A stretch of 64,000 nt of DNA. It comes from an uncultured Bacteroidota bacterium (lineage in GTDB: Bacteria; Bacteroidota; Bacteroidia; Bacteroidales; GCA-2748055). The notes under the pieces are model-generated. The model saw nothing but the letters and a program-made list of their open reading frames with translations. It had not been told where the DNA came from and ran no database searches. Shown piece after piece: positions 24,408 through 41,100 of the stretch (positions are counted from its first letter, which is position 1; every line of letters begins with the position of its first letter). A program made the translations under genes and the position numbers. The stretch spans positions 5,664 to 69,663 of the forward strand of contig CAVQMZ010000024.1 in assembly GCA_963713725.1 (NCBI GenBank), given 5' to 3'.

Positions 24408-27400
24408 ATGTTCACCATGAATAAGAATAAGGAAATTTATTATGGCCAGTCAAAGCTGGTTACATCAGGAAAGAGGATAGGAGGCGGAATCACAGAACTG
24501 GATGGAGAGGTGTTTTACCGGATTTCAGATTACGACCGTATGCAGCCTTTTTTTATGTCCATAGTCAGCAGTTCGGACCACTGGATGTTCATATCGGCTA
24601 CAGGGGGGCTTACCTGTGGTCGAAAGGATCCTGAAAATGCCCTTTTCCCGTATGATACAGATGACAAGATCCATGATGCTTCTTCAAGCACAGGCTCACG
24701 GAGCATAATCCTTGTGGAAATGGAAGGCCGTTGCAGCCTGTGGGAACCTTTCCGTACCGATCTTCCGGGCGTTTATAAAACCACGAGCAATCTGTATAAA
24801 AACAGGGTAGGGAACAAACTGATATTCGAGGAGATAAACCACTCCCTTGGGCTAATGTTCCGTTATACCTGGATGAACAGTGCCAGATTTGGCTTTGTAA
24901 AGCAATCTGAAATAAGAAATATAGGCACGGGACGGGAAGTGTCTGTCAGGTTTATTGACGGGATCCGAAACATACTTCCTTATGGCGTGAACCGCATGTT
25001 GCAGGCAAACATGAGCACCCTCGTTGATGGGTATAAGAAATGTGAATTGGATGAAGGGACCGGGCTTGGGATCTATACCCTCAGCTCAATTCTGACAGAC
25101 AAGGCAGAACCAAGTGAAGCCTTGAAGGCAACTACGGCATGGTCGACTGGACTGGAGAATACAAAATATCTCCTGTCTGTGGACCAGTTTCCCACCTTCA
25201 TGAGGGGATCAGTCCCGGAAACAGAATCCTCACTGAAAGGCAGGCGCGGGGCATATTTTGTTTGCGGGGAGCTTGAACTCGGTCCGGGACAGAGCAGGGA
25301 CTGGCTCATAGTAGCCGATATAAACCAGGGGCCTTCGGATGTATTCTCCACAATCAATTTACTTCAGAAAGGTGGGGGTAAGCTTAAAAACCTGGTCCTT
25401 GATGATGTTATGCAGGGCACAGGATTCCTGAAGGAACTTGTTACTATGGCTGACGGGGAACAGATGTCGGCCGACAGACTGATGACAGCGAGGCATTTCT
25501 CAAATACCATGTTCAATATCATGCGGGGTGGAATTTTTTCCAGCAACTACCTTGTTGATACTTCAGATCTAAAGGAGTTTGTCGGGAAGTGGAATTCAGT
25601 GGTATATGAAAAACAGAAGGCCTTTCTTGAGAACCTGGAACCATCTGTAAATTATCATCTTCTTCTGGAAGCTTCCAGGGAAACCCGAGATCCGGATTTC
25701 ACAAGGCTTGTTTATGAATACCTGCCCCTGACCTTCAGCCGGAGGCACGGAGATCCCAGCAGGCCGTGGAATCAGTTTTCCATCGATGTAAAAAAAACCG
25801 ACGGGAGTCAGAAGCTGTATTACCAGGGTAACTGGCGTGATATTTTTCAGAACTGGGAAGCACTGGCAATTTCCTACCCCGGTTATATTGAAAGTTTTAT
25901 AAGCAAATTTGTTAATGCGTCCACTATAGATGGTTACAATCCCTATCGGGTAAGCAGGGACGGGATTGATTGGGAGATTCTGGATCCTGACGATCCATGG
26001 TCCAATATCGGATACTGGGGTGACCACCAGATTATATATTTGTTACGGCTCATTGAACTATCCATGAAATATCATCCCGGGGAGCTGGCAAAACACTTAT
26101 CTGCCAATCTATTTGTTTACGCAAATGTACCTTACCGGATAAGGCCCTATGATCAACTGGTGGCTGATGCTAACAACAGCATTAAGTATGATGCAGACCT
26201 GGAAAGAGTCATTGCAGAAAGAGTTGAGAGAACAGGTGCGGACGGAAAGCTGCTATTCAACCAGGCAGAAAAGGTGCTGAAAACAAATCTGGCAGAAAAG
26301 ATCCTGGTTACTCTTTTATCCAAGCTCAGCAACTTTATTCCCGAAGGCGGTATATGGATGAATACCCAGAGGCCCGAATGGAATGATGCCAACAATGCAT
26401 TGGTGGGGAATGGCCTTTCGATGGTCACACTCTATTATCTCAGGCGATTCATCACTAAGATGGATGAGCTTTTCGGATTTATGCCAGGTCCCTTCCTGAT
26501 AGCCGAGGAGGTGGCTGATTTGCTCCTGGAAATTTGGAATATTCTCCACAAAGAGAAAAAACTGTTGATCGGCAGTCTAAGTGATGCCAGTCGCAGGGGG
26601 ATCGTCGATCAGCTGGGACTGGCAGGCAGCAAATACCGGAAATCGATCTACGATAGGGGTTTTTCTGAAAAAAAGGCAGAGATTACAGCCTCCCGCCTGA
26701 AGGAATTCTTCACCCTGAGCCTGGAATTCCTGGACCATACAATCGATTCCAACAGGCGCCCGGACAGACTCTTCCATTCTTACAACCTGATTGAATTTGT
26801 AGAGGGTAGTTGCAGTGTTGCCCCCCTTTATGAGATGCTCGAGGGGCAAGTGGCGGTATTGAGCTCGGGATATCTTGATGTGAAGGAAACATTGGGTGTC
26901 CTGGATGCCCTGCGGGAGAGCAAAATGTACAGACCTGACCAGAATTCATACATGCTCTACCCGGACAAGGAGCTTCCGGGATTCCTTGAAAAGAACCTTA
27001 TCCCCAGGGGAGGCCTGGATCAGTCAGCCTTCCTGTTGGACGAAATTCGTAGTGGGAGACAGGAGATTATTGAGGAGGATGAGAACGGGAATGCCCATTT
27101 TAACGGATCCCTGCGAAATGTTGCTGAACTGAAGGAGAGGCTGGATAGCCTGGATGATATTTCTCCCCGGGATAAGAAGGAAGTATGCGAGCTCTATATG
27201 GACTGTTTTAATCACAGGCAATTCACAGGTCGCTCAGGCACTTTCTTTAAGTATGAGGGTCTGGGGAGCATATACTGGCATATGGTCTCCAAACTTTTAC
27301 TGGCAGTAAAGGATGTATATCTTCAGGCAGAACAAAAAGAGGCGGAACCAGAGCTCTTATCCAGGATCAAAGATCATTATGATCAGATAAAGGACGGCCT

Positions 27401-27854
27401 GGGATTAAAGAAGACACCCGATGTTTATGGTGCATTCCCTACGGATCCCTATTCCCATACCCCAGGATTCAGCGGGGTTCAGCAACCCGGTATGACCGGG
27501 CAGGTCAAGGAAGATGTGATCACCCGTTTTGGTGAGTTAGGCGTGATCATTGAAGAGGGCTCAGTCAGGTTCAATCCCTTGTTGTTGCCTGAACAGGAGT
27601 ATCGACACTCAGGATTAAAATGGGAGTTGAACCGACAGTTAATTACTCTCGAAAAGGATGAACTGGGCTTCACTCTGTGCGGCACCCCTGTTATCTACAG
27701 GATGGGGAATTCCGCATTCACCAGGGTTGAACTGTCAGACGGTGAAGAGATCATGCTTTCCCCTCCTTGTATACTGGATAAAGAGCTGAGTAATCATCTC
27801 TTTAACAGAACCGGTCATATCAAATCCATCCGGGTGGAGTTTTCCGGCGGTTAA
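24408..27854 (+). CDS. large cytoplasmic GH94/GH149-like glycoside phosphorylase candidate (beta-1,3-glucan phosphorylase)
   Basis: 1148-aa ORF with no signal peptide. Motifs seen are RRHGDPSRPWNQF, GNWRDIFQNWE, GYWGDHQIIY and RPEWNDANNAL, the last resembling the DWND catalytic-Asp region of GH94 phosphorylases. It sits next to an MFS importer within a beta-glucan PUL. Confidence 0.5.
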   Translation: MFTMNKNKEIYYGQSKLVTSGKRIGGGITELDGEVFYRISDYDRMQPFFMSIVSSSDHWMFISATGGLTCGRKDPENALFPYDTDDKIHDASSSTGSRSIILVEMEGRCSLWEPFRTDLPGVYKTTSNLYKNRVGNKLIFEEINHSLGLMFRYTWMNSARFGFVKQSEIRNIGTGREVSVRFIDGIRNILPYGVNRMLQANMSTLVDGYKKCELDEGTGLGIYTLSSILTDKAEPSEALKATTAWSTGLENTKYLLSVDQFPTFMRGSVPETESSLKGRRGAYFVCGELELGPGQSRDWLIVADINQGPSDVFSTINLLQKGGGKLKNLVLDDVMQGTGFLKELVTMADGEQMSADRLMTARHFSNTMFNIMRGGIFSSNYLVDTSDLKEFVGKWNSVVYEKQKAFLENLEPSVNYHLLLEASRETRDPDFTRLVYEYLPLTFSRRHGDPSRPWNQFSIDVKKTDGSQKLYYQGNWRDIFQNWEALAISYPGYIESFISKFVNASTIDGYNPYRVSRDGIDWEILDPDDPWSNIGYWGDHQIIYLLRLIELSMKYHPGELAKHLSANLFVYANVPYRIRPYDQLVADANNSIKYDADLERVIAERVERTGADGKLLFNQAEKVLKTNLAEKILVTLLSKLSNFIPEGGIWMNTQRPEWNDANNALVGNGLSMVTLYYLRRFITKMDELFGFMPGPFLIAEEVADLLLEIWNILHKEKKLLIGSLSDASRRGIVDQLGLAGSKYRKSIYDRGFSEKKAEITASRLKEFFTLSLEFLDHTIDSNRRPDRLFHSYNLIEFVEGSCSVAPLYEMLEGQVAVLSSGYLDVKETLGVLDALRESKMYRPDQNSYMLYPDKELPGFLEKNLIPRGGLDQSAFLLDEIRSGRQEIIEEDENGNAHFNGSLRNVAELKERLDSLDDISPRDKKEVCELYMDCFNHRQFTGRSGTFFKYEGLGSIYWHMVSKLLLAVKDVYLQAEQKEAEPELLSRIKDHYDQIKDGLGLKKTPDVYGAFPTDPYSHTPGFSGVQQPGMTGQVKEDVITRFGELGVIIEEGSVRFNPLLLPEQEYRHSGLKWELNRQLITLEKDELGFTLCGTPVIYRMGNSAFTRVELSDGEEIMLSPPCILDKELSNHLFNRTGHIKSIRVEFSGG

Positions 27855-27896
27855 GCCGGCTCCATTCTATTGGTGATAGGATATTTATTCTGTTAG

Positions 27897-27914
27897 TTTC
27901 GAGAGGGGAGAGGC
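27897..27914 (+). repeat. solo 18-nt seed (TTTCGAGAGGGGAGAGGC) of the conserved repeat module found at 31.5-36.3 kb
   Basis: It is identical to the corresponding 18 nt of repeat copies C (33738-33755) and E (36171-36188). It is intergenic, between the phosphorylase-like gene and the 3' end of the TonB receptor. Confidence 0.7.
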
Positions 27915-27930
27915 AGGCATAATACTTTCT

Positions 27931-30347
27931 TTAAAACTCCTCGCCACCGCCTCCATCTGATCCGCTGCCCCGATTGCTCTGCTTGAAATTGTTCAGGCGG
28001 TAGCTGAGCTGTAAGTGAAATAATGGGTGCCCGGGTGGATCTGCTGTAATAATTGTAGAAGTCAACATCCTGTGTAATGGATACACGCGTCCACGGTGGA
28101 AAAAACATCGCGAACCTGCAGAACCAGGGATAAGCTCTTATCCAGGAAATCGCTGCGTACAGCAGCATTAAATGCGTAGTAACCTTTATCCTCACCCTGT
28201 GTGGTAACCGTGGCACTGTTGTAATTGCCATCAAACTGGATCCGGATCCTTTTGGCTATGTTAAATGTATTGTTCACCCTCGTCCCCCAGTTAAATGATT
28301 GATATAGAAGATCCGTTGATCTCACTATCGATACGATAGTCATACATGTCGCCCATCAGATTGAGCTCCCACCATGGAAACAGTGATATATTGTACAGGG
28401 CTTCCAGGCCAAGGGAGTAATCGGTACCCACATTGGTATAGGTTTGTAAAAGAATCCCTTCCTGCATAAACTTCCCGGGTTCGTTCCACTTTGTTGTGTT
28501 TGATCCTGTAATAGGCTTCCAGTGACAACTGTGACTTCTCACGTGAATGAATGAAGCCCATTTCCATGGCATCGATATACTCTGGTTGCAGGGCAGGATT
28601 TCCCTGTCGAACATTGTACATATCGGTCCAGGTAATAAAAGGCTCAAGGTAATATCCCCTGGGCCTGTCGATGCGGCGTGAATAGGAGGCCATGAGCTGG
28701 TTTTCCCCGGGTAACTGGTAGGAGAGGTGGAGGGTAGGGAAGAAGTCATATCGTTCCAGGGTATAGTCTTCAACACTCTCATCTGCAGTAATAGCTCTGT
28801 TGGTATATTCGCCCCTCAGGCCTGCCTGGTATCCCAGATTTCCATTTTCTCCTTTGAAGATTCCATACAGGGCATAGATATTCCTGGTATATATAGTGTT
28901 ATTGCTCTTGTCTGGCTGAAGAATATAATCCTGCACATCCGGGTCGAAGATATACAAAGCAGTTGCATCCTCACTTGTTCCGCTTCTCAGCTGAAAACCA
29001 GCTTCCAGGCCATGTTATCACCAATGGGTTTGGAATAATCCAGCTTTGACTTCCAACTGATTTGAGGGTCCTTTTTCGGTAGTTCTTGTACCCTGGTTCA
29101 CCGATCCATTCTCATCCTGAAGCAAGTTCTCGAGAGAACTCGTCTCCCTTTCGAAGCCTTTGGTTGAACTGCAGCATCAGCTCATGACCCTTTTGCTAGA
29201 AATGAATGTTGAAAACTACCTGTCAGGTTGTAATAAAGTGCACCCCGACCGGATTCGTTCAGGCTGATTTCGCGTGTTTCGAAATCGAAAGGATCACGGT
29301 AGGTCAGGTAGTCGAGTTGGGAAGTTGCTCAGGCCCTTATACTCCCCGGCCCGGATTCCAATGGAAAAATTGTTCCTGGGTGAAATATCCCAATCCAATC
29401 CCATCCGCAATCCACCTCCACCATGCAGGCTTTCAGAATCACCCGCCGCTTCAATGATGGTAGTGGTATCTCCCTGGGTGGTCCGCCGTTCACTGGAGGT
29501 CTCTCCGGGATAAGGACTGTTCCTGTAATCCCCTCCAAAATAGATATTTGCATTACCTTTTCTGTAATTCAGCAGGAAATCTCCCCCGTATTCCCCGAAA
29601 GTATTGGTTTTGAGGTTGAACAGACCCTGGAGGCCCATGCATGCGGTTTTTCTTTGTAATGATATTGATGATCCCACCCGTACCATCTGGCTGGTACCTG
29701 GAAGAGGGATTGGTGATGATCTCGATATTTTCAATGGTGGAGGCCGGGGTTTGCCGCAATACATCACTGGGATCCAGCACCGTGGGTTTTCCATCAATGA
29801 GGACCGTAAAGCCTGTACTTCCGCGAAGTGATACATTGCCTTCCACATCCACACGGATGGATGGTACATTTTCAAGTACTTCCACAGCACTCAGTGAGGC
29901 AGCAGTCATCTGCTCACCCACAGAAATAACTTTTTTATCGATTTGAAACTCAACTGCGTTTCGTTCATTGGTAATCACCACTTCCTCAAGAATCTGGGAA
30001 CTGGTCTCCAGGAAAATCGTTCCGATATCCAGGCGTCGATTGCTGCGATCGATCACCAGATCACTGTAGTGCAATTCATCATAACCCATGAAACTCACCT
30101 GTATATAATAGTTGCCCTCGGCAATCTTGGTGGCATTGAAATTGCCATTCCGGATCTGTGATGGTGCCGGTTACAAGTGTGCTGTCATCCGCATTGAATA
30201 ATGCGATGGTTGCGAATTCAATGGGTTGTTTCGGATTCCTGGTCATAAACCATACCCCGTACCTGTCCTCCTTCATCAATATCATCAGCATGTAGTATTC
30301 ACCGCAATAAACAGGCTGAACATCATTCCAATAAATATCTTTTTCAT
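27931..30347 (-). pseudogene. TonB-dependent receptor (CarboxypepD_reg + plug + barrel) broken by many frameshifts
   Basis: At least eight overlapping minus-strand ORF fragments tile one receptor. Manual translation gives the N-terminus MKKIFIGMMFSLFIAVNTT from ATG 30347, a plug (NVSLRGSTGFTVLIDGKPT, IENIEIITNPSSRY) and the C-terminus LSYRLNNFKQSNRGSGSDGGGGEEF with its stop at 27931-27933. Confidence 0.8.
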
Positions 30348-30668
30348 AGCTATCATTCCTCATAATATCATCTTCACCATTTCTCCTGGTCCTGATTGAT
30401 AGTTATAATTAGACTATTAACACCTGCTAAAGTTTAATTGTTCTAAATAAAAATAAAATTGTTTTAACTAAATCACTGCAATTCTGACTTTTATGGGCGA
30501 CTGCTATTAATATTTAGATTTTAATAGGGGAGAAGTAATGCATATTTCAGATAATTAAAGAATATCCTCAATTTGTGAATACTGTTTGGTTTAGCCCTAA
30601 CTTATATCTATATTGCTACTAATTAAGTCGATAGAGGATATTATTTAACTTCGAAATACCGCATTATT

Positions 30669-31196
30669 ATGAGCAAGACCGCATTATTTTACAGCCCGGA
30701 AGGCGGAAACGTAGATAGCGTAGCCAAAAAGCTTGGAGAACTGATTGGAAATGAAAAAGTTGATATAATTCCTGTAAAAAAAGTTAAACAGGGAGATTTA
30801 GATAAATACAATAAGATCATCCTTATAGGTTCTACTGTAGGAGCAGATCATTGGGATAACGAAATTATTGTAGATGAGTGGGCTGAGTTTTTTATGAAGA
30901 TTAAGGATAATAGTTTTGAGAATAAAAAGGTAGCTATTGTCGGACTTGGAAACAGTGTTTTATATCCTGAACACTTCGCGGACGGAATGGCTGTTCTTTA
31001 TGAAAGAATCAAAGAGCAAAATGGTGAGATATTGGGTAAGATTGAAGCGAAAGGTTATGATTTCACAGATTCGGAAGCTTTGGACGATAAAGGATTTTTC
31101 TGCGGATTAGCGATTGACGAAGACAATGAATATGATCTGACTGAAGACAGATTAAAAAACTGGATATCGATCTTAAAACCTGATTTTGAGTTTTAG
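30669..31196 (+). CDS. fldA: long-chain flavodoxin
   Basis: 175-aa ORF with an FMN-binding N-terminus (ALFYSPEGGNVDSVAKKL), VAIVGLGNSVLYPEHFADGM and a long-chain insert. The gene is markedly A+T-rich. Confidence 0.85.
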   Translation: MSKTALFYSPEGGNVDSVAKKLGELIGNEKVDIIPVKKVKQGDLDKYNKIILIGSTVGADHWDNEIIVDEWAEFFMKIKDNSFENKKVAIVGLGNSVLYPEHFADGMAVLYERIKEQNGEILGKIEAKGYDFTDSEALDDKGFFCGLAIDEDNEYDLTEDRLKNWISILKPDFEF

Positions 31197-31480: not shown

Positions 31481-31509
31481 GGTGTTAAAACTAACTTTGG
31501 AAGTTCTAA

Positions 31510-31757
31510 AAAAGCATGTGTCCAAATTGCTTTGGCCAACAGGTTAGGTATAAAAGTTACCCTATTGCCTCAATATTGTCAATGGTGGGTCGTCTCCTGG
31601 ATTTGCTGGACCCTTCTGCTGATATTTCAAGAGGGGAGAGGCTTTGCTTTTCCTGATGAGTGGAGGATACACTCTTTTTGCGTTGCAAAGCGATGAAAAA
31701 AGGGTGTTTCTAATATCACGCTGATATATAATCAATACACATAAACCTTAAGATCTA
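31510..31757 (+). repeat. repeat copy A: degenerate 3' half-site, conserved multi-hairpin module (31526-31707) and a 50-nt extension shared with copy B
   Basis: Hand alignment to copies B-E finds ATTGCTTTGG...TTTCAAGAGGGGAGAGGCTTTGCTTTTCC...GGATACACTCTTTTTGCG...AAAAGGGTGT, followed by TTCTAATATCACGCTGATA...CCTTAAGATCTA. Confidence 0.75.
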
Positions 31758-31825
31758 GTCTAAAAGGTTCTTATCAGCGGTACTGTTACCATATTGGTAA
31801 CTTTTTTTATATTTGAGGAAATTTT

Positions 31826-32119
31826 ATGCGAATTATTGCAAAAAGAATCATAAGGGAATTCTGGGAGAAGTATCCTGATGCCGAAGAAGCATTGCGAACC
31901 TGGTACCGTGAATCATCCAGGGGAAAATGGCATGATCCGAATCATTTGAAAACTCATTTCGGTCATGCCAGAATAATAGGTGCTAACAGAGTGATATTTA
32001 ACATCTGTGGCAACAAATACCGGCTTATAACCGAGATTAACTACACGAGGGGGTGGGTTTTCATTCGTTTTATAGGAACCCATTCTGCATATAATAAGAT
32101 TGACCCAAAGAAAATATAA
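31826..32119 (+). CDS. higB: type II toxin HigB-family mRNA interferase
   Basis: 97-aa ORF MRIIAKRIIREFWEKYPDAEEALRTWY...NRVIFNICGNKYRLITEINYTRGWVFIRFIGTHSAYNKID, a strong family-typical sequence. Confidence 0.9.
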   Translation: MRIIAKRIIREFWEKYPDAEEALRTWYRESSRGKWHDPNHLKTHFGHARIIGANRVIFNICGNKYRLITEINYTRGWVFIRFIGTHSAYNKIDPKKI

Positions 32120-32124
32120 TTGAT

Positions 32125-32484
32125 ATGTACCAGGTAAAACCAATTAAATCGGAAGAGGATTATGACAATGCGCTTAAGCGTATGAAAGAGATATTTCACG
32201 CAGAAGAAGATACAGAGGAAGGGGACGAGGCCGAAATACTCATGTTGATTATCGAAGATTATGAGGAGAAGTATCATCCCATTGGTAATCCTGATCCCAT
32301 AGAAGCCATTAAGTTCATGATGGAGCAAAAGGATCTGAAACAAAAAGATCTCGCAGAAATCCTTGGGTATAGGAGCCGTGTCTCAGAAATCCTATCCGGG
32401 AAAAGGAAGCTGAATCTGGAAATGATTCGCAGACTTCATGAAAAATTGAATATCTCCTATGAAACACTTATGGGCAGGTATTAA
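32125..32484 (+). CDS. higA: HigA-family antitoxin (XRE-type HTH)
   Basis: 119-aa ORF starting 5 nt after higB. It contains IKSEEDYDNALKRMKEIF...PDPIEAIKFMMEQKDLKQKDLAEILGYRSRVSEILSGKRKLNLEMIRRLHEKL. Confidence 0.9.
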   Translation: MYQVKPIKSEEDYDNALKRMKEIFHAEEDTEEGDEAEILMLIIEDYEEKYHPIGNPDPIEAIKFMMEQKDLKQKDLAEILGYRSRVSEILSGKRKLNLEMIRRLHEKLNISYETLMGRY

Positions 32485-32507
32485 TAGCATACTGAACGGG
32501 AATATGA

Positions 32508-32872
32508 CGCAATTCCTGTCAACATAGGACAAACAGCCAGTGGCTGTTTGGGCCAGGCTGTGGGTGGCTACCGATATAGGGAAAGGAAAAGCCCTCTATC
32601 TGATTTTATGTGAATCAGCGCAGCTGAAAGGGATTTGCTTCTTTTGCACTAGAATGTACTTGCATTAAGTTAATATAGCTTTGGGAACCAAAGTGATAAA
32701 TGCAATTTTCTGTAGGTCTTGTACCATTTGTTGAATTTTGAAGAGGGGAGAGGCTTAGATTTTTCTGGATGGATGGTGGATACACTCTTTTTGCGATGCG
32801 GAGAAACGTGAAAAGGGTGTTTACTGATACGCTGATAAACAATCCTTTATCACATCAACCTTTAAGATTCTA
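32508..32872 (+). repeat. repeat copy B: branched hairpin (32521-32612), type-1 3' half-site, multi-hairpin module, shared extension
   Basis: It starts 24 nt after the higA stop. It contains AACATAGG, two internal hairpins, TTTTATGTG, then GCACTAGAATGTACTTGCATTAAGTT and the module ending GGGTGT at 32820. The extension runs to about 32872. Confidence 0.8.
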
Positions 32873-32912
32873 TGGCGAACTTATAAAGCTATCAACAATT
32901 ATCCATATCACT

Positions 32913-33525
32913 ATGAGTGAGGAAAACAATCTAACATTATCAGATGAAGTCGTAATGGACAAAATCCATTTGTTTAGAGGTGTTAAAGTAATGCTAGACA
33001 GAGATTTGGCCGAACTCTACGGTGTGACTACAGGTAATCTGAATAAAGCTGTAAGTAGAAACATAGCTCGGTTTCCTGATGACTTTATGTTTCAACTTAC
33101 CAAAAAGGAGTTCGATAACTTGATATTCCAAATTGGAATATCAAGTTGGGGTGGTCTTCGTAAACTTCCACGAGCCTTTTCCGAGCAGGGAGTTGCCATG
33201 CTTTCAGGAATTCTACACAGCGAAAGGGCCATCAAGGTTAACATCCATATTATGCGAGTATTTTCTCGGATGCGTGAAATGCTTGAAGCCCACAAAGAGA
33301 TCCTATATAAAACTTGAATCCCTAGAAAGAAAAGACTTTGAACAGGATGATAAAATCATGATAATCCTGGAATACATAAAGCGACTTGAAAAAACCCAGT
33401 TTAATGGAGGTCGCAATTTACGTCCTCCAATAATCCGCATCTTACAGGGAAAAGCATTTGCGGGATGGCTTGAGATGCAATTTAATATAATACTCTTGAG
33501 AAGGTCGCAAATCCCTTCAACATAG
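32913..33525 (+). CDS. ORF6N (KilA-N-like) DNA-binding domain protein; frameshift at the A4 run 33309-33312; 3' end uncertain
   Basis: From ATG 32913 the sequence reads MSEENN...IHLFRGVKVMLDRDLAELYGVTTGNLNKAVSRNIARFPDDFMFQLTKKEF...WGGLRKLPRAFSEQGVAMLSGILHSERAIKVNIHIMRVF. The C-terminal coiled part (KLESLERKDFEQDDKI...) continues in the frame of ORF 33133..33525. Confidence 0.75.
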
Positions 33526-33818
33526 GACAAACAGCCAGTGGCTGTTTGGGCCAGGATGTGGGCGGGTACCGATATAGGGGCAGGAAATGCCCTATATCTG
33601 ATTTTATGTTAATCAGCGCAGCTGAACGGGATTTGCTTCTTTTGCACTAGAATGTACTTGCATTATGTTAAGATTGCTTTGGTAACCAATGCTATACATC
33701 CGACTTTTCTGGTAGAATCCCAAATCAAATATTTAATTTCGAGAGGGGAGAGGCTTTGGCTTTTCCGGATGATAGATGGATACACTCTTTTTGCGAAACG
33801 AAGCAGCGGAAAGGGTGT
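33506..33818 (+). repeat. repeat copy C: outer stem, branched hairpin (33519-33610), type-1 3' half-site, multi-hairpin module
   Basis: The sequence runs CGCAAATCCCTTCAACATAGG...TTTTATGTTAATCAGCGCAGCTGAACGGGATTTGC, then GCACTAGAATGTACTTGCATTATGTT, then the module ending GGGTGT at 33818. Confidence 0.85.
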
Positions 33819-33840
33819 AAAGTCGGTAAACTGTTCAAGA

Positions 33841-34159
33841 TTACACTATTGGAATCCCTTCTTTTTTTACGATCTGAAGCAGGGGTGAAACTTCATCATT
33901 GTCGAATCGGGAAAGACCAACAGCAAAAGGTTCAATTCGGCGGTCAACTTTGCGGGTTAATTTCCAGATCAGTCCATAAGCAAGATCATCAGAACTGTCA
34001 TCAAACCTCCTGGAAACCAGCATTACATCAATATCACTTCCTTCAGTTCCTCATTCCGGCTGCACTTCCAAAAAGAAAGGCCTTCTCGATCTGTAAACCA
34101 GAATCGTTCAGAATCCTAACATATTCTGAGACTTTGCTTATAGTTTCCTTTCGATCCAT
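33841..34159 (-). CDS. nucleotidyltransferase (MNT-like) partner of the HEPN protein; one frameshift near 34040-34062
   Basis: Manual translation gives MDRKETISKVSEYVRILNDSGLQIEKAFLFGSAAG and then a frame break. It continues as ..EGSDIDVMLVSRRFDD... in ORF 33841..34023. This is the GSxxxG...DxD NTase signature. Confidence 0.7.
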
Positions 34160-34518
34160 ATCAACATCTCCTTTGTTTTATTCAGATACTCAACGACTTT
34201 ATCTTTTGTAGGTATTACAGGATTGTAATCGGGATACCGACCTTCCAACTGATATTTCATCAGAATCCCAAGGAAATCCTCATAAATCTCTTCAAACTCA
34301 ATATTGGAAAGATCCAGTAGATATATCAGGTTGTGTGTTTTGGGAGGAATTTGTCCTGTATCTTTTACCACAAGTGCCTTAAGGGCTTTCTCAATTGTTA
34401 AATGGCAAAAGAAAAGACCATGAATACTCCTTGATTCCCTGATTAACAGCTCAGCAGTATCCAGATCGGATTTTGCAGAAGTGATCCAATATTCTATTTG
34501 CTTTTCAATATTAAGCAC
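34138..34518 (-). CDS. HEPN domain protein
   Basis: 126-aa ORF; EYWITSAKSDLDTAELL...HGLFFCHLTIEKALKALVV...PKTHNLIYLL is typical of the HEPN (PF05168-like) family. It overlaps the downstream NTase start by 22 nt. Confidence 0.75.
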   Translation of the reverse strand: MLNIEKQIEYWITSAKSDLDTAELLIRESRSIHGLFFCHLTIEKALKALVVKDTGQIPPKTHNLIYLLDLSNIEFEEIYEDFLGILMKYQLEGRYPDYNPVIPTKDKVVEYLNKTKEMLIWIERKL

Positions 34519-34579
34519 ACCAGTAGTTTTACTAAAAGTACATATTTTTCCAGAAAAGCCTTTGCACAGAAGACAACAA

Positions 34580-34640
34580 AAGCGGAGCGAAGGCTGGAGA
34601 AGGCTTTTGAGCGCAGGCTGTGGGGCAATTTAACATAATA
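34580..34640 (+). repeat. repeat half-site G: conserved 40-nt leader plus ATTTAACATAA, with no 3' partner
   Basis: AGGCTTTTGAGCGCAGGCTGTGGGGCAATTTAACATAAT aligns with the 5' sides of copies E (35981-36019) and F (36980-37019). The hairpin is replaced by an ORF fragment directly after AACATAA. Confidence 0.75.
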
Positions 34641-34986
34641 CTTTTTCAATAATGATATTTATGTAGGTACTGATGTGGGGGTATATTCTAAATCTATAAA
34701 TGACAATGCCTGGCAAGAGGAAACGGATTTTCCGAAAGTCCTAGTTTCAGATTTATTATTAAATAAATCTAGTGGGGATTTGGTGGCTGGCACATACGGG
34801 AGGGGTGTTTGGAGGAAAAACCTAGGTGCTGGGGATTGTGTTGATTTTACGGATTTAACCATCGATTCTTATCTTGACTGGAATGGTAGTCCTGTATGTT
34901 TTAATATAACTGTGGCTTCTGGTGGAACGTTAAATATTACAGGGAGTGTAGATATGGCTAATAGAGCGCAAATCCTTTCAACATAA
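34639..34986 (+). pseudogene. internal fragment of a beta-propeller/BNR-like secreted protein gene, bounded on both sides by repeat elements
   Basis: The open frame begins at 34639, immediately after the repeat half-site: YFFNNDIYVGTDVGVYSKSINDNAWQEE...LVAGTYGRGVWRKNL... There is no start context or signal peptide. The frame ends inside the left arm of repeat D. Confidence 0.6.
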
Positions 34987-35243
34987 AATCGGTATCGATA
35001 TAGGGTCGCTACACGCCCTATATTGATTTTATGTTAATCAGCGGAGCTGAACGGGATTTGCTTCTTTTGCACTAGAATGTACTTGCATTATGTTGATATT
35101 GCTTTGGTAACCAAAGCGATACATACAATTTTCAGTAGGCCTTGTACCATGTATTGAAATTTCAAGAGGGGAGAGGCATTTGCTTTTCCGGATAGTTGAT
35201 GGATACACTCTTTTTGCGGAACAGAGTGGAGTGAAAAGGGTGT
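34967..35243 (+). repeat. repeat copy D: outer stem (34968-34975 / 35054-35061), clean 56-nt hairpin (34980-35035), type-1 3' half-site, multi-hairpin module (35098-35243)
   Basis: AACATAAAATC pairs with GATTTTATGTT in 11-bp arms, with an inner ATATAGGG/CCCTATAT stem. The module hairpins are listed in the findings. Confidence 0.85.
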
Positions 35244-35258
35244 ACAAATAGGAACTAC

Positions 35259-35591
35259 TTATTTTAGTAATTCTGCAACCTCTTTTCGTAATAAGGGCAG
35301 AGATCGTTTGATAATCAACCACAAGATATCTGGGGTTATGCTGTCATAGCCATGAATTATCCTGTTTCTTGTATCAACTATCTTTCGTGAATCAGAGATA
35401 GCAATATCAGGAGAAACTTTTAATATTCTATTCAAAGCCTCACCAATGATCTCTATGTTCCTTTCAATTGCCTTTTGTGTTTTAAGGTCCTTCTCAAACT
35501 CGAAGTAATCAATATCCGCTGGCAAGAAATCGTAAATCTGCTTAATAGATATCCGAATATCTTCAAGCCAAGTATTGATCTCATGCTTCAT
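35259..35591 (-). CDS. hepT: DUF86/HepT-type HEPN toxin
   Basis: 110-aa ORF with the Rx4H motif in DTRNRIIHGY and IERNIEIIGEA, typical of DUF86. It overlaps the upstream NTase gene by 11 nt. Confidence 0.85.
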   Translation of the reverse strand: MKHEINTWLEDIRISIKQIYDFLPADIDYFEFEKDLKTQKAIERNIEIIGEALNRILKVSPDIAISDSRKIVDTRNRIIHGYDSITPDILWLIIKRSLPLLRKEVAELLK

Positions 35592-35880
35592 ACAAAAGCT
35601 TTTTCGACTTATTGATGCTAATGGTAAGATATTTATTTCTGAGCGCCTTTTGTTCGAGTAGGTCTATCTGACGATTCAGCAAATCCTCTAGTGCAAATTT
35701 CAACCCAAAATAATTCTCAGCATATTCTATTGGGTCCAAGGTATTAAAATCCACCACTAAATCTACATCGCTATCCTTTGTGAACTCAGTATTTAGAACG
35801 GAACCAAAAGCAAATAGCTGTCTGACCTTGTGATTTTCACAAAGCTTATTTATTTCACCTATGTAAGAATCCAGATACAT
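35581..35880 (-). CDS. mntA: MntA-type nucleotidyltransferase antitoxin
   Basis: 99-aa ORF containing LFAFGSVLNTEFTKDSDVDLVVDF (GSx10-DxD). Confidence 0.85.
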   Translation of the reverse strand: MYLDSYIGEINKLCENHKVRQLFAFGSVLNTEFTKDSDVDLVVDFNTLDPIEYAENYFGLKFALEDLLNRQIDLLEQKALRNKYLTISINKSKKLLYEA

Positions 35881-35961
35881 AACTTATGTACAAAAATAGA
35901 AAATCCGACATAACTAGTGTAACCTAAACAAGAAAAGACTGTGCGCAGGATATGTTGAGAC

Positions 35962-36253
35962 TAAAGCGAGGTAGCGGGAAGGCTTTTGAGCCCAGGCTGA
36001 GGGGCTATTCAACATAATGTCAAATTCTAGTGTCAGAGCAGCAACCAGGCAACATAGCAAAGATAGCCGCAGCTGCACTAGAATGTACTTGCATTATGTT
36101 GATATAGCTTTGAGATCTATAACATATTACATGCCTAATCTGAATAATTTCCTGAAACAGTCAATGCAATTTCGAGAGGGGAGAGGCTTTTGCTTTTCTG
36201 GATGATTGGTTAGTACACTCTTTTTGCGGAATGTAATGAAGCGAAAAGGGTGT
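35962..36253 (+). repeat. repeat copy E: 40-nt leader, type-1 hairpin (36007-36104), multi-hairpin module ending 36253
   Basis: The hairpin is ATTCAACATAATG TCAA ATTCTAGTG ... CACTAGAAT GTACTTG CATTATGTTGATA, with two perfect 9-bp stems. The module then follows. Confidence 0.85.
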
Positions 36254-36281
36254 CAAAGGCATTGACCTCTGACTCGAGCTT

Positions 36282-36629
36282 CTATAGTGAATCTATAATT
36301 GACTGGATTTGCAATCTGTTTTCCGGAAGATGATTGATACAAACATCCCATATGATTTCATAGTCAATCCCAAAATACTCGTGGCTTACCTTATTTCTAA
36401 GCAGATACATTTCAGCCCAAGGAATGTCTGGATTATTTTCTTTAATATGACTGGGCAGATTTTTTGAAGCTTCTCCGATAATTTCAAAATTCCGGATTAC
36501 TGCATCTACTGTCTTATAATCCTTTTTGAACTGGTCAAAAGTGTATCCTTCAAGATATTCAGCGATTCTACTCATTGCAACAAGAAGATCTTGTAAATAC
36601 ATCGTATAATTGCGCTCCTCCTTTTTCAC
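36282..36629 (-). CDS. hepT: DUF86/HepT-type HEPN toxin (second, divergent copy)
   Basis: 115-aa ORF with the Rx4H motif in LLRNKVSHEY and AVIRNFEIIGEA. Confidence 0.85.
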   Translation of the reverse strand: MKKEERNYTMYLQDLLVAMSRIAEYLEGYTFDQFKKDYKTVDAVIRNFEIIGEASKNLPSHIKENNPDIPWAEMYLLRNKVSHEYFGIDYEIIWDVCINHLPENRLQIQSIIDSL

Positions 36630-36920
36630 TTATGCGTAATTAACTTGTGCGAGAATACTATCCCTAATTTGCTCTTTTAATGCATTTTTGGTAACCAAAT
36701 CTACTTTTCTGCCAAATATACTTTCCAGATAGATTTGAAGTGTGAAATAATTCCAACCTATGGGTTTGTATAATTCTACCAGCATATCAATATCACTTTC
36801 ATCCGAAGCTTCATTATTTGCAAAAGATCCAAAAATGCCAATCTCTTTAACAGCATATTCCTCAGAAAGGATCGGTTTCAACTCTCGAAGTTTATCGAGT
36901 ATATCATTCTTGTTAAGCAT
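36630..36920 (-). CDS. mntA: MntA-type nucleotidyltransferase antitoxin (second copy)
   Basis: I moved the start to the internal ATG at 36920 (MLNKNDILDKLRELKP...IGIFGSFANNEASDESDIDMLVEL). The track ORF's 32-aa N-terminal extension reads through repeat copy F. Confidence 0.8.
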   Translation of the reverse strand: MLNKNDILDKLRELKPILSEEYAVKEIGIFGSFANNEASDESDIDMLVELYKPIGWNYFTLQIYLESIFGRKVDLVTKNALKEQIRDSILAQVNYA

Positions 36921-36965
36921 ATTCAAATATATTGAATTTTTGCGGATAGATTCAGCATAATCTAC

Positions 36966-37100
36966 TAGAGAGGCGGAAAAGCTTTTGCGGGCTGGCCTAG
37001 TGGGGCTATTTAACATAATGGCTGATTCTAGTGTCAGCGCATCAACCAGGCAACAGTGAAAGAAAGTCGCAACTGAACTAGAATTAATATTATGTTAAAT
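36966..37100 (+). repeat. repeat copy F: leader plus type-1 hairpin (37008-37100) only; last unit of the array
   Basis: ATTTAACATAAT (37008-37019) and ATTATGTTAAAT (37089-37100) are perfect 12-nt inverted arms, with an inner ATTCTAGT/ACTAGAAT stem. No conserved module follows. Confidence 0.85.
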
Positions 37101-37167
37101 AGAAAATATATAAAGAAAGGGAGATAATTAGCTTACCTCCCCTCTCATTATCGTTTTGAAATGAAAC

Positions 37168-38508
37168 TTATAAGTTCTCCTTCAGTGCTTTAACCCTTTC
37201 ATACTGATCCATCATCTGCTCCTTGTAATATATTCTCTGAAGGATATCAAGGGTTTCATATTTCACTGTAGGATTATCAACATTAAGCTCGTAAGCCTTC
37301 TCAAGAGCTGGGATTGCCTCTGAATATTTTTCCTTACCCAAGTTTCAAAAGCTCTCCCTGGTGGGCTCATGCTCTTCCACATTTGATCTTTCATAAAAGT
37401 CAGCTCCCTGCAGGTAATAAATGTATCCCATATCATACCAGATATAATAAATGGTTGGATCCAGCTCTCCAGCCTTCTGGTAAGCTCAATTGCCTTATCA
37501 ATGAATTCAACTTCTTCCTTATTAATAAGCAGCCTTCCTTTCCAATAATAAGTCTCCGCGATGTCGGGATTATTTGCAATGGCTTGATCCATAAACTCAA
37601 TGCCTTCATCAAATTGGCCTAATAGTATGTAAGTATCTGCAACATTGGCAATTATATTAACTGAGTCAGGGTATTTTGCGAATCCTTCTTTTAATGCTTC
37701 CAGTACCTGCAAGGGTATCTCCAATGGCAAAATAATCCATTTTAATCTGCAGGTAGGTATTGGGACCACCATAATTAACCTCAGCCAGTTGCTCATAATA
37801 ATTGATTGCTTTCTTGTAAAGCTCATCATCATCAGTTTTACTGGCAATTTCCCTGGAAATAATACCGGAATACTGAACCATAATGGTATCAAATTCACCT
37901 GCAAATACGGGCTGGTTATTAACTTCAAGGACATTCTCAAAACAATTTAGAGCCGCCTTATAATCATCTTTATAATAGCTATTTACACCGTCTCTCTTCA
38001 ACTGGTCCTTAATGGTATCGAGATTGGCTTTTGCTTTTTCTTCCAGCTTCCCTGCTTCATCCAGCTCAAGTGCTTTTATATAGGCTTCCATGGATACTCT
38101 CAGCGGATCTTCATTAATTGGATTTATCTTCTCATAATACTGAAGATTCCCATTGACGAAGGTATATTTGATTTGCTCATAAATATAAGTTTCATACTTA
38201 GCGCCATCCTTTGTCTTCAGTCTCAATACTCAGAGGCTCTTTATATAAGAGTATAACAGCAGTTGTTGGCGATGCCTTCCTGGATTTCTTCAAGACCAAT
38301 CATAAAAACATCCTGGTAAATCTCTCCCCTTTTGAACCAGGTAGTAGCTTTCTGACTTTTCTTTTGCGTCTTGTATTTCCAGATCGCTTTTGTCCGCTTT
38401 CTTTTTTACTGCATTATAGTTTAGTGGAATAAATGTAGAGCCATCCTGCGCATTCATCGCAGGGATTGCTAACAGAGCCACTAGCAGTGTAACAAATAAC
38501 TTTTTCAT
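37168..38508 (-). pseudogene. TPR-repeat lipoprotein/secreted protein, at least three frameshifts
   Basis: The N-terminus MKKLFVTLLVALLAIPAMNAQ comes from an internal ATG of ORF 38290..38553. The middle is covered by ORFs 37666..38226 and 37263..37940. Manual translation of the C-terminus gives ...GKEKYSEAIPALEKAYELNVDNPTVKYETLDILQRIYYKEQMMDQYERVKALKENL, with the stop at 37168-37170. Confidence 0.7.
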
Positions 38509-38581
38509 TTCGATTGTGAATTTAATGTGATGCAAAAATATAAACTTTAACAATAACCTTCAAATAAGATGCCAAAACAGC

Positions 38582-41100
38582 TTAGTCCTCTTTAGTACCC
38601 TCAGGACTATCCTCTTCTGAGTCTTCAGTATTTTCCACTTCCTGATCGTCATTATCTTCATTGGATGGAACCTGGGTTGCAGCGGCTATCTGATCTCCTT
38701 CTCTAAGGTTAATCAGTTTGACTCCCTGTGTGTTACGACCCATAACCCTCATTCCTTTCACTGCTAAACGGATGGCAATACCACTCTCGGTAATGATCAT
38801 CAGATCATCATCGTCGGTAACCGCTTTAATGGCAATTAATTTACCTGTCTTATCGGTTACATTGATGGTTTTAACACCCTTTCCGCCACGATTGGTAAAG
38901 CGGTAATCGTCAATAGCAGAACGTTTGCCATAGCCATGTCTCTGAAATAACCAGGATATCCTGTTCTCCCTGGTTTGGCAGTCACAATGCCAACTACCTC
39001 ATCCTTGGGACCTCCAAGGGTCACCCCTTTTACTCCCGAAGAAGTTCTTCCTACGGACCTCACTGTATTCTCATGGAAGCGGATGGCTTTGCCAGATTTA
39101 ACAGCCAGCATAAGTTCCATATCGCCATCTGTAAGCCTGGCATCCAGAAGCATATCTCCTTCCCTGATGATAATGGCGTTGATCCCATTTTGCCTGGGCC
39201 TTGAATAAGCCTCCAGTCTGGTTTTTTTAATCACACCTTTCTTAGTTGCCAGTACAAGGTAATTGTTGTTTATATACTCCTCGTCCTTGAGGTTCTTCAC
39301 GTTTACAAAGGTTTTTACCGTATCCTCCTTGTCGATATTGATCAGATTCTGTATGGCTCTTCCCTTGCTGGCCCTTACCCCTTCCGGAATTTTGTAAACT
39401 TTAAGCCAGTAGCACTTTCCATTCTCCGTAAAGAATAAAATGGTGTTGTGCATGGTGGCCACAAACATATTCACCATGAAGTCCTCTTCCCTGGTGGTAC
39501 TTCCCTTTGCACCAACACCTCCCCTGTTCTGAGTCCTGAATTCGTGTAAGGGTGTACGTTTGATATATCCCAATTTGGATATGGTAATAACCATATCATC
39601 ATCTGCATAAAAATCTTCGGGATCAAATTCACCTTCATCTGGAACCATCTCGGTTCTTCGCTCATCTCCATAAGCTGCTTTGACCTCCAGGAGCTCCTCT
39701 TTAATGATCTCCATTCTGAGCCCTTCATCCGCAAGAACTCTCTTGTAAAATTCGATCATCTTCATGAGTTCGTCATACTCATTCTGCAATTTTTCGCGTT
39801 CGAGTCCAACAAGACGCTGCAAACGCATCTCCAGAATGGCTTTGGCCTGAATTTCGGTAAAGCCAAATTTTTCCATAAGTCCTTCACGGGCTTCGTCAGG
39901 AGTTCTTGAAGCCCTTATAAGAGTAATCACCTCATCAATGTGATCAAGTGCTTTCAGGAGGCCTTCCAGGATATGAGCCCGCTTTTCAGCCTGATCCAGA
40001 TCATACTGGGTTCTACGCACAACCACATCATGCCTGTGTTCCACAAAATAGGTTATGATCTGCTTCAGATTCAGCGTCCTGGGCCTTCCTTTTACCAGTG
40101 CAATGTTATTTACATTAAAGGAGGTTTGAAGCTGTGTATATTTTAAAAGGTTGTTCAAAACCACATGAGCACTGGCATCCCTTTTAATGATGATAACAAT
40201 CCTCATTCCCTGACGGTCTGATTCATCGTTGATGTAGGAAATGCCTTCGATCTTTTTATCATTAATCAGATCAGCGGTTTTACGAATCAGCTCAGCCTTG
40301 TTAACCAGGTAGGGAATTTCTGTAATAATAATCTTTTCCCGGCCCGTGTCGGTTATTTCAATCTCGCTCTTGGCGCGGACGACTATCCTTCCTCTACCCG
40401 TCTCATATGCTTCCACCACGCCATTATATCCATAGATAATGCCTCCGGTAGGGAAATCAGGAGCTTTCAGTATTTCGGTAAGCTCACTAATTTCTATTTC
40501 GTTGTTCTCGATGTATGCAACAATGGCATCTATGCTATCGCTCAGGTTATGCGGGGGCATATTTGTTGCCATACCCACTGCAATTCCGGAAGTACCATTA
40601 ATAAGGAGTGTCGGTATCCTCGTAGGCATCACAGTTGGTTCCTCCAGTGTATCGTCAAAGTTGAGCTGGAAATCTACTGTGTCCTTTTCCAGATCAGCCA
40701 TAGTCTCTTCTGCAATTTTCTGAAGGCGGGCCTCTGTATACCTCATGGCAGCCGGACTATCTCCGTCCACCGATCCAAAGTTTCCCTGGCCCTGAACCAG
40801 AGGATAGCGAAGGGACCATTCCTGGGCCATTCTAACCATCGCATCATAAACAGATGTATCTCCATGAGGGTGATACTTACCCAGCACCTCTCCTACTATC
40901 CTGGCTGACTTTTTATATCCTCTGCTGGCAGTTACTCCCAATTGCTGCATCCCGTATAGCACCCTGCGGTGAACCGGTTTCAATCCATCCCTCACATCAG
41001 GAAGTGCTCGCGAAACGATTACCGACATCGAGTAATCGATGTAGGCAGATTTCATTTCTTCCTCAATGTTAATTCTCAGTATTTTTTCACCTTCGGCCAT
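38582..41100 (-). CDS. gyrA: DNA gyrase subunit A, with two apparent +1 frameshifts at about 38945-38975
   Basis: The 747-aa ORF has canonical GyrA sequence ([20 protein letters not shown]-terminal beta-pinwheel repeats). Its tail becomes nonsense, and the true continuation (EQDILVISE / [53 protein letters not shown]...) lies in the other two frames and ends with ORF 38582..38800. Confidence 0.9.

Follow-up and report, generated by a model that had tools for sequence, protein, structure and literature searches.

Candidate Xer-exploiting cassettes stacked at a probable dif site of an uncultured Bacteroidota bacterium

Between 31.5 and 37.1 kb of a 64,000-nt stretch of DNA from an uncultured Bacteroidota bacterium of the order Bacteroidales (GenBank assembly GCA_963713725.1, contig CAVQMZ010000024.1, positions 5,664 to 69,663), referred to here as the window, lies a series of repeats. 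Its last two hairpins, copies E (36007-36104) and F (37008-37100), had been put forward in a preliminary description as substrates for a tyrosine recombinase of the IntI or Xer kind. The question raised by this locus is which of these two systems the hairpins belong to, and what the DNA between them represents. It was concluded from sequence comparisons, with a probability of roughly 0.7, that the 31.5-37.1 kb region consists of five small, non-phage mobile cassettes stacked in the chromosomal dif site, with hairpins E and F as seams of the array. Of the two kinds of recombinase proposed, the Xer part held, in that the right arm of hairpin F is that of dif and the hairpins are pairs of inverted dif half-sites, whilst the IntI/attC part did not.

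Copy F has arms that repeat each other exactly in inverted orientation, as originally described (ATTTAACATAA, 37008-37018; TTATGTTAAAT, 37090-37100), and the right-hand arm is identical at 11 of 11 positions to the XerD-binding arm of E. coli dif (GGTGCGCATAATGTATATTATGTTAAAT, quoted in PMC3025954). This 11-mer is not common in the window, where exact copies occur three times and always within the array (34628 and 37008 on the minus strand, 37090 on the plus strand). Copies with up to two mismatches were found 35 times against 32 expected, which is the background level, hence only exact or near-exact copies are informative. The right arm of F closes a 28-bp site with the 11+6+11 layout of dif (37073-37100, plus strand), composed of an XerC arm, CTGAACTAGAA (37073-37083), originating from the last cassette, a centre TTAATA (37084-37089) and the chromosomal XerD arm TTATGTTAAAT (37090-37100). 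The inner part of the XerC arm, CTAGAA, equals that of the left (XerC-side) arm of B. subtilis dif.

Neighbourhoods of gyrA homologues were fetched for comparison, giving 80 loci (loci and contigs are denoted here by L numbers). In approximately 30 of these, a bare-type site, TTGTCCTATAA-TTAATA-TTATGTTAAAT, or a near variant of it is located 1.4-2.7 kb downstream of gyrA on the same strand, directly after the terminator of a TPR gene, and the intergenic DNA around it is unconserved; L003, L004 and L006, for instance, carry TTGTCCTATAA-TTAATA/G-TTATGTTAAAT in the same place beside the TPR terminator. The 23-mer core CTAKAA-TTAATA-TTATGTTAAAT matched at least 120 stretches, and in each of the 119 Bacteroidota stretches that were read it had one match; these included Bacteroidales, Flavobacteriales, Chitinophagales, Saprospiraceae and other taxa. 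Kono et al. (2011) had predicted dif in 14 of 19 Bacteroidetes strains with a proteobacterial profile. When compared with the organism's own dif, as had been suggested, the right arm of hairpin F proved to be that dif, syntenic in relatives and with a core found phylum-wide, and 37073-37100 is very probably the chromosomal dif site. GC skew is positive between approximately 10 and 34 kb, switches at 34-36 kb and is negative between 35 and 62 kb, and the orientation of genes flips at the array so that they converge on it, which over the 64 kb visible is the pattern expected at a replication terminus. The G+C content of the 31.5-37.1 kb region (0.37-0.40) is below that of the neighbouring DNA.

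To the left of dif, self-comparison and pattern searches delineated five units, each 998-1425 nt in length. Each starts, immediately after an XerC-type arm, with a 10-nt spacer, TGTACTTGCA, and an XerD-like arm, TTATGTTGATA, followed by a short hairpin and, approximately 60 nt further on, by an 85-nt motif termed M (TTTCRAGAGGGGAGAGGC...ACACTCTTTTTGCG...GAAAAGGGTGT). The cargo, in either orientation, comes after M and is succeeded by a G+C-rich leader and a terminal structure that closes with the next XerC-type arm. In the circular form the core would be some 340 nt of contiguous non-coding sequence, with the cargo located between M and the leader. The order of this core is leader, inverted XerD arm, 6-7-nt spacer, inverted XerC arm with one unpaired T, loop of approximately 35 nt, XerC arm, crossover, 10-nt spacer TGTACTYGCR, XerD-like arm, short hairpin and M.

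The position of the crossover was read from the junctions. At the left junctions of L095 and of L004, the latter holding one cassette, the chromosomal arm TTGTCCTATAA is followed by the foreign sequence TGTACTCGC(A/G)-TTATGTTGATA, whilst at the right junction of L004 an XerC-type arm precedes TTAATA-TTATGTTAAAT and the TPR terminator. All right junctions likewise have a cassette XerC arm followed by TTAATA-TTATGTTAAAT, and the terminal sites of the window, L001 and L002 combine a cassette-type XerC arm (ending in CTAGAA) with the consensus centre and XerD arm. Comparison of occupied with bare junctions therefore places the breakpoint where the XerC arm meets the central region, with an ambiguity of one shared T; it is at this border that XerC cleaves dif (PMC5357621). 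Measured from this breakpoint, the G|TT in TTATG|TTAAAT lies 11 nt downstream in the dif form and 15 nt downstream in the attL form. Strand exchange by IntI takes place at the G|TT of R', and the fit of GTTAAAT to GTTRRRY follows simply from the sequence of the XerD arm. The attC/IntI part of the initial proposal was consequently abandoned, since the breakpoint is not at G|TT, copy E fails the R' consensus, and a Pfam scan of 30 long open reading frames (ORFs) of the window detected no tyrosine recombinase domain. To judge by these junctions, the array was probably built by recombination at the XerC border.

A scan limited to one genome per species detected the same cassette organisation in 21 stretches, which, pooled with the gyrA loci, yielded 41 distinct cassettes with the same order and polarity in approximately 20 metagenome-assembled genome (MAG) assemblies. 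In every locus a single strand carries the junction site, M and dif, in that order, and dif forms the right end in 12 of 12 loci (window counted) where it falls within the fetched range. Cargo genes outside the window encode ORF6N proteins, HepT/MntA and HEPN/nucleotidyltransferase pairs, HigA, a YhcG nuclease, C10 peptidases and proteins with type-IX secretion signals, and no recombinase or replication protein was identified in cassette cargo by Pfam scans.

Several comparisons are signs of cassette turnover and mobility. The sets and orders of cassettes in L001 and L002 differ from those of the window, to which their gyrA DNA is 82% identical. Cassette 5, the unit next to dif, is 86-88% identical to cassettes in L090, L092, L093 and L098, where the TPR gene is only 70-71% identical to that of the window (L092 and L098) and gyrA 78% (L098), so that this cassette is more alike in distant genomes than the core genes are; in L002, a closer relative, the copy is only 79% identical and lies at the array's far end. 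Cassette 4 has a counterpart with 94% identity on a 967-nt marine metagenome contig (L304). An exact-protein look-up with the MntA of cassette 4 returned three short contigs that end inside repeats and are uninformative on circles. The non-coding core (leader, hairpin E and M; 35960-36262) had zero matches in phage or plasmid collections.

Hairpin F (37008-37100, plus strand) comprises an inverted XerD arm (37008-37018), a 7-nt spacer (37019-37025), an inverted XerC arm (37026-37037), a 35-nt loop (37038-37072) and the dif site, and is the 3' end of cassette 5 joined to the chromosomal central region and XerD arm. In hairpin E (36007-36104, plus strand), an inverted XerD arm (36007-36017), spacer (36018-36024), inverted XerC arm (36025-36036) and loop are followed by the XerC arm CTGCACTAGAA (36073-36083), the crossover, the spacer TGTACTTGCA (36084-36093) and the XerD-like arm TTATGTTGATA (36094-36104), so that its final 21 nt are part of the next cassette. 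Its two 9-bp stems, AACATAATG/CATTATGTT and ATTCTAGTG/CACTAGAAT, with TCAA versus GTACTTG between them, were as first reported, as were the lengths of the two imperfect hairpins (98 nt for E, 93 nt for F). The likening of this layout to the R-box, spacer and L-box of attC sites stands as an analogy (XerD-arm stem, central region and XerC-arm stem) and not as attC membership; both boxes of F and the R'' of E fit the attC consensus, but the R' of E, GTTGATA, does not fit GTTRRRY.

When both strands were folded as single-stranded DNA and compared with 200 shuffles, E (-23.9 kcal/mol on the plus strand, -25.5 on the minus strand) and F (-15.9 and -15.5 kcal/mol, respectively) folded far better than the controls, with z-scores of -4.6 to -6.1 and none of the 200 shuffles equal or better. 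In an alignment of 20 hairpins of the E/F type from 13 assemblies (window counted), scored over 20 stem pairs, 96.7% of stem cells paired standardly, against 30-45% when the partners were slid by 1-3 columns, and one position of the XerC stem switches between A-T (10 sequences) and C-G (8 sequences). Non-Watson-Crick cells were G·T in 22 cases and A·C in three, an excess which favours folding of the plus strand, as DNA or as RNA, rather than an inverted repeat that exists only as a duplex. All copies have an asymmetric centre, of 6-7 nt versus 10 nt in the junction form, and the XerC stem carries one extra T on its 5' side in both hairpin lineages, which in the minimum-energy fold of E can be drawn as a T·G pair. 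Provided that the site is the terminus, the plus strand would be the lagging-strand template to the left of dif.

A gathering-threshold Rfam scan of the window and a permissive one of 30.3-38 kb gave no family for the hairpins or M. A role of E and F as intrinsic terminators was also considered and rejected, as neither was called and neither has a T-run; the calls were confined to the TPR terminator and inner fragments. As a separate observation, an insert of approximately 30 nt and high G+C content (CCGGAGCGAAGCGGAGCTCGGCG or its reverse complement) is present, in both orientations, inside or beside otherwise homologous hairpins in L086 (1570-1704), L091 (3106-3240), L093 (5733-5868) and L098 (2554-2688), as well as in L003, L083, L087 and L002 (near 17650 and 14390), and behaves like a tiny mobile or palindromic insert.

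All five cassettes of the window are on the plus strand, and their cargo genes were identified with Pfam. Cassette 1 (31503-32654), presumably the oldest, has a decayed left junction (31503-31535), M at 31625-31707 and its XerC arm at 32644-32654; it carries higB (31826-32119) and higA (32125-32484), both on the plus strand, and a nested small hairpin (32518-32616). The left-most junction is the most decayed of all, as expected if cassettes join at the dif end. Cassette 2 (32655-33652, 998 nt) consists of spacer and arm (32655-32675), M (32737-32820), an ORF6N gene (32913-33317, plus strand), a remnant of the inverted arm (33480-33490), a nested small hairpin (33516-33614) with the dif-like sequence ATGCCCTATAT-CTGATT-TTATGTTAATC at 33587-33614, and the XerC arm (33642-33652). 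Cassette 3 (33653-35077, 1425 nt) has spacer and arm at 33653-33673, M at 33737-33820 and the XerC arm at 35067-35077, with a HEPN gene (34138-34518, minus strand), its decayed nucleotidyltransferase partner (33830-34137) and a 103-aa gene fragment (34675-34986) as cargo. It also contains an orphan leader with an inverted XerD arm (34586-34638, the arm at 34628-34638) and a nested small hairpin (34976-35039), and is probably two fused and eroding cassettes; the 103-aa ORF resembles a fragment in a cassette of L097 (…ITVASGGTLNITGSV…). Cassette 4 (35078-36083, 1006 nt) is composed of spacer and XerD-like arm (35078-35098), M (35160-35243), HepT (35259-35591) and MntA (35581-35880) genes, both on the minus strand, the leader (35965-36006) and hairpin E. 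Cassette 5 (36084-37083, 1000 nt) has the same organisation, with the spacer and XerD-like arm followed by M (36170-36253), minus-strand genes for HepT (36282-36629) and an MntA-type nucleotidyltransferase (36630-36920), the leader and hairpin F up to its XerC arm.

The motifs noted earlier in copies B, C and D were all found, TTATGTTAATC at 33604 and 35029 and TTATGTGAATC at 32606, and belong to a second, nested module. The module comprises an entire small hairpin, including a dif-like site with the 11+6+11 layout (33587-33614, for example), after which come a mini-hairpin and, approximately 30 nt on, the XerC arm that bears the crossover. An inverted XerD-like arm (up to two mismatches) is present within 160 nt upstream of 29 of the 119 dif sites read. 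By eye, the nested module was recognised at about 12 of them (in Tenacibaculum, Flavobacteriaceae, Bacteroidales and others) and a simple hairpin of the E/F kind at about eight (including an Algoriphagus MAG, an Elizabethkingia isolate, a Fluviicola MAG and two assemblies already in the set), whilst the remainder seem to match by chance. The nested module of L184 is repeated in tandem as units of approximately 165 nt that hold no cargo, with no central region or XerD arm after the junction.

Other small structures were observed at dif. In the Flavobacteriia loci L184, L181, L225 and L236, cargo-less structured units of approximately 165 nt stand in tandem on the XerC side of dif, each with a hairpin with XerD-arm stems, a covarying mini-hairpin and an XerC arm, and they look like miniature Xer-exploiting elements. 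In six more distant Bacteroidales (L011, L013, L018, L020, L035 and L038), a second site with an XerD arm lies 0.2-1.8 kb upstream of dif, with a non-consensus XerC arm and centre, which suggests other small insertions at the same dif that are devoid of the M motif.

The M motif contains a hairpin of 13 pairs, of which two T·G pairs hardly vary, and some covariation is seen higher up the stem; full copies within the window are confined to the array. Alternatively, M may be read as a promoter of the Bacteroidetes type (TTTG, 21 nt, TcTTTTTG). Its orientation is fixed relative to the junction and not to the cargo, which makes a cis role in the life of the element likelier than one in cargo expression; single-strand priming, replication or transfer would be guesses at such a role. 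A hammerhead ribozyme, considered on account of CTGATGAG in one copy of M, was dismissed because that sequence is unconserved in the other copies. A lone fragment consisting of the first 18 nt of M (TTTCGAGAGGGGAGAGGC) was noticed at 27897-27914, between two convergent genes 3.6 kb to the left of the array, and similar lone fragments of approximately 60 nt lie several kb from the arrays of L001 (19540-19600) and L002 (21271-21327); these may be what is left of a former array boundary, or the hairpin may be used there independently.

These elements are best described as non-phage, CTXφ-like Xer-exploiting cassettes stacked in an integron-like manner, for which we infer catalysis by XerC/XerD, a single-stranded substrate, an order of insertion and the possibility of excision. 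A folded single strand is somewhat favoured as the substrate. In the folded plus strand, the inverted half-sites would pair with each other to give a duplex that resembles dif but has a mismatched centre of excessive length, as in the attP(+) of CTXφ, and the host XerC would exchange one pair of strands with dif at the border of the XerC arm and central region, the intermediate being resolved by replication. A circle with a folded attachment site would thereby open at the XerC position and enter dif, its hairpin remaining dif-proximal. The hairpin and XerC arm of the cassette, now joined to the chromosomal TTAATA-TTATGTTAAAT, would constitute a usable dif for the next cassette, as exemplified by copy F, whilst the earlier joint would become a dead site with a 10-nt centre that FtsK/XerD could not use, as in copy E. 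With a usable dif regenerated and the old joint dead, the array would grow at its dif end and decay at its far end. A wider reading, to which we give slightly less than even odds, is that of an integron-like platform for gene capture in Bacteroidota without an integrase, in which dif acts as attI, XerC/XerD act as IntI and cassettes enter as folded single strands. Just as tentatively, this reading would include stacking at the terminus, a cargo of the toxin-antitoxin and defence type, exchange between species, and a cis function provided by M and the leader (e.g. priming, replication or transfer).

The junctions would be predicted equally well by XerC-side exchange between double-stranded molecules, as in elements of the VGJφ or TLCφ type, with a site made up of the XerC arm, 10-nt centre and XerD-like arm and no single-stranded substrate; the inverted left arm would then have some other function, for example as a trap for XerD or FtsK, in insulation or in regulation. 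Such an explanation suits the cassettes of L004 and L087 that lack the left arm, and the degenerate or unrecognisable left arm of copies B-D and of L184. Against it stand a left arm that pairs at 96.7% across some 13 assemblies and covaries with the XerC arm, the strand-specific 22:3 ratio of G·T to A·C, for which double-stranded DNA does not account, and the conserved asymmetry of the centre (6-7 versus 10 nt). Xer central regions are typically 6-8 bp long, and a centre of 10 bp would be a poor double-stranded substrate. We regard double-stranded recombination as unlikely, and the separate role that it leaves to the left arm as similarly so.

Three explanations that dispense with Xer were given far less weight. 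That the hairpins are integron attC sites in an integrase-less cluster (CALIN), served by an IntI encoded elsewhere in the genome, would agree with the RYYYAAC...GTTRRRY boxes of F, with the length of 93-98 nt, two stems and internal loop, and with a toxin-antitoxin-rich cargo typical of chromosomal integrons. It is nevertheless extremely unlikely, given a breakpoint at the XerC-arm/centre border rather than G|TT, the failure of E's GTTGATA, a terminal site that is a conserved chromosomal dif, the absence of IntI from the window ORFs tested and from the fetched arrays, and approximately 190 nt of conserved 5' sequence per cassette, which integron cassettes lack. Non-autonomous hairpin elements mobilised by a HUH transposase (IS200/IS605) or a rolling-circle Rep, inserting 3' of TATAA/TAGAA into the lagging-strand template, would explain the strictly uniform orientation with a folding strand that, inferred from the skew, is that template, the subterminal hairpins at both ends, and an element end identical to the short sequence after which insertion occurs. 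Yet insertions are found at dif only, exactly at the XerC cleavage position, despite the abundance of TATAA in AT-rich DNA. Both dif arms are imitated in the elements, and neither the cassettes nor the window ORFs tested contained a gene for HUH or Rep. This mechanism is considered very unlikely. Hardly any credence is given to local tandem duplication beside dif followed by gene replacement, without mobility. The regular spacing of approximately 1 kb and two cassettes with the same kind of cargo would fit it, but ends are conserved whilst cargo is unrelated between cassettes, sets and orders differ even amongst genomes with gyrA DNA 82% identical to that of the window, the same end modules surround other cargo in approximately 20 assemblies, and cassette identities are incongruent with those of core genes.

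Several points weigh against the proposal of Xer-exploiting cassettes. Turnover and mobility are read from alignments between genomes; the Xer genes lie outside the window, and the terminus is judged from 64 kb. The covariation of the hairpins amounts essentially to two lineages and few independent events, most stem positions being invariant. The single cassette of L004 and the last cassette of L087 are without a left hairpin arm, which may mean that the hairpin is dispensable or that these two cassettes are dead. A different hairpin module, the nested one, is present in copies B-D and at many dif sites of Flavobacteriia, and the tandem units of L184 are unexplained by the simple model.

The chromosomal left flank of the array is a flavodoxin gene (30669-31196, plus strand; Pfam), a homologue of which is directly followed by TTGTCCTATAA and then TGTACTCGC in L004 and L095; an unoccupied dif flanked by this gene was not found among the fetched loci. 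The right flank, kept beside or near dif in relatives, consists of the TPR terminator (37144-37116), a frameshifted TPR gene (37160-38553) and, beyond it, gyrA (38582-41100), all on the minus strand. A TonB-dependent receptor gene (27893-30363, minus strand), the TPR gene and gyrA are each broken into several reading frames, and frameshifts in several essential or conserved genes suggest assembly errors (long-read or MAG) and not real pseudogenes. An ORF of 1148 aa immediately left of this region (24408-27854, plus strand) had zero Pfam matches.

Viral contigs were also inspected. Matches to the M 15-mer, of which there were 58, look like chance, and in the two with an upstream G-rich box neither was M-like. 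Perfect inverted XerD arms 55-85 nt apart were present in 24 IMG/VR contigs (L279-L302), several of them with a full Bacteroidota-type dif (e.g. L294 and L297); nine of the 24 were scanned for ORFs, and the annotated matches were tailed-phage terminases, an exonuclease and a peptidase, with no microvirus proteins. One further contig, L303 (IMGVR_UViG_3300033066_000896, 14,154 nt), contains at 4300-4700 an intact hairpin followed by TTTTGTCCTATAA|TGTACTTGCA-TTATGTTAAAG, as predicted for the unsplit site of a free element; the 10-nt centre is the same, and there is no M motif. Only two weak matches (E approximately 1e-4) were obtained with Pfam and PHROGs among ten of its ORFs tested, and L303 is possibly an autonomous relative or helper.

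The closest mechanistic parallel is provided by the CTXφ-type integrative mobile elements exploiting Xer (IMEX) of V. cholerae, which encode no recombinase of their own and integrate at chromosomal dif, forming arrays with RS1 and TLCφ at dif1 (PMC5357621). The attachment site of CTXφ consists of two inverted dif-like sequences, one strand of which folds into a forked hairpin whose centre is non-canonical; strands are exchanged on the XerC side, and the joint of hairpin and dif regenerated next to the chromosome enables successive elements to stack (PMC5357621). The cassettes share with these elements the hybrid junctions with a breakpoint at the XerC cleavage position (left junctions of L004 and L095, right junctions of the cassettes), an inverted dif-like pair that folds in one strand around a non-canonical centre (6-7 versus 10 nt), and the absence of an element-encoded recombinase from the cargo and the window ORFs tested. 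They differ in having no phage genes (Rep, coat or morphogenesis), in their size of approximately 1 kb with one or two cargo genes, in their Bacteroidota host, in a loop of approximately 35 nt as opposed to approximately 90 nt in CTXφ, and in the addition of the conserved M motif and leader.

The arrays resemble integrons in being made up of small, mostly one- or two-gene cassettes rich in toxin-antitoxin systems, in the proposed use of one strand as substrate and in that the cassette beside the platform site would be the newest. The end hairpin may be likened to attC as an imperfect structure of 60-140 nt with two protein-binding stems, an unpaired spacer and an extrahelical base. In contrast to integrons, the platform at the head of the array is dif and not attI, no intI was found in the window ORFs tested or the fetched arrays, the crossover is at the border of the XerC arm and not at G|TT, the stems are dif half-sites, and the cassettes have approximately 340 nt of conserved non-coding sequence in common. 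In its working the array is CTXφ-like and in its appearance integron-like, and it is strictly a member of neither class, having no phage genome and no IntI, attI or exchange at G|TT.

The nearest published cases are modules at dif-like sites in Acinetobacter and proviruses in Bacteroidetes. Modules termed pdif are bounded by full 28-bp sites, the orientation of which alternates across each module. Those of Acinetobacter are small, often carry toxin-antitoxin or accessory genes between XerC/XerD-type sites, are thought to be shuffled by the host XerCD (PMC12907356, PMC13141974) and have been described mainly on plasmids, with chromosomal dif-like sites bearing modules now also reported (PMC12907356). 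The junction sites of the window, in contrast, are all direct, the units sit on the chromosomal dif and had no plasmid match, and each window cassette has its inverted copy at one end, separated from the partner by 35 nt. The Bacteroidetes microvirus proviruses BMV1-7 (Krupovic and Forterre 2011) are integrase-less with dif-like flanks, and some have an extra dif-like sequence near one end that the authors likened to the inverted pair of CTXφ (PMC3091885). These occur in the same host phylum as the cassettes, but are viral genomes of 4.6-6.3 kb with capsid and Rep genes, are unstacked, and have no reported M motif. No description of stacked non-viral cassettes at a Bacteroidota dif was found in the literature, coverage of which was incomplete, and an earlier description may exist.

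If the proposal is correct, stacks of exchangeable cassettes with one or two genes could be built on the universal machinery for chromosome dimer resolution, without a dedicated integrase. It would also widen the range of Xer-exploiting elements, on which most work has concerned phages of Vibrio and plasmid modules of Acinetobacter, to include non-viral cassettes in a major phylum of environmental and gut bacteria. Integron integrases are the closest relatives of XerC/XerD, and a natural Xer system with folded hairpin substrates in arrays would bear on the origin of integrons. The dif, junction and M motifs together provide a marker with which such arrays may be found, and the terminus is flagged as a place where accessory and defence genes would accumulate.

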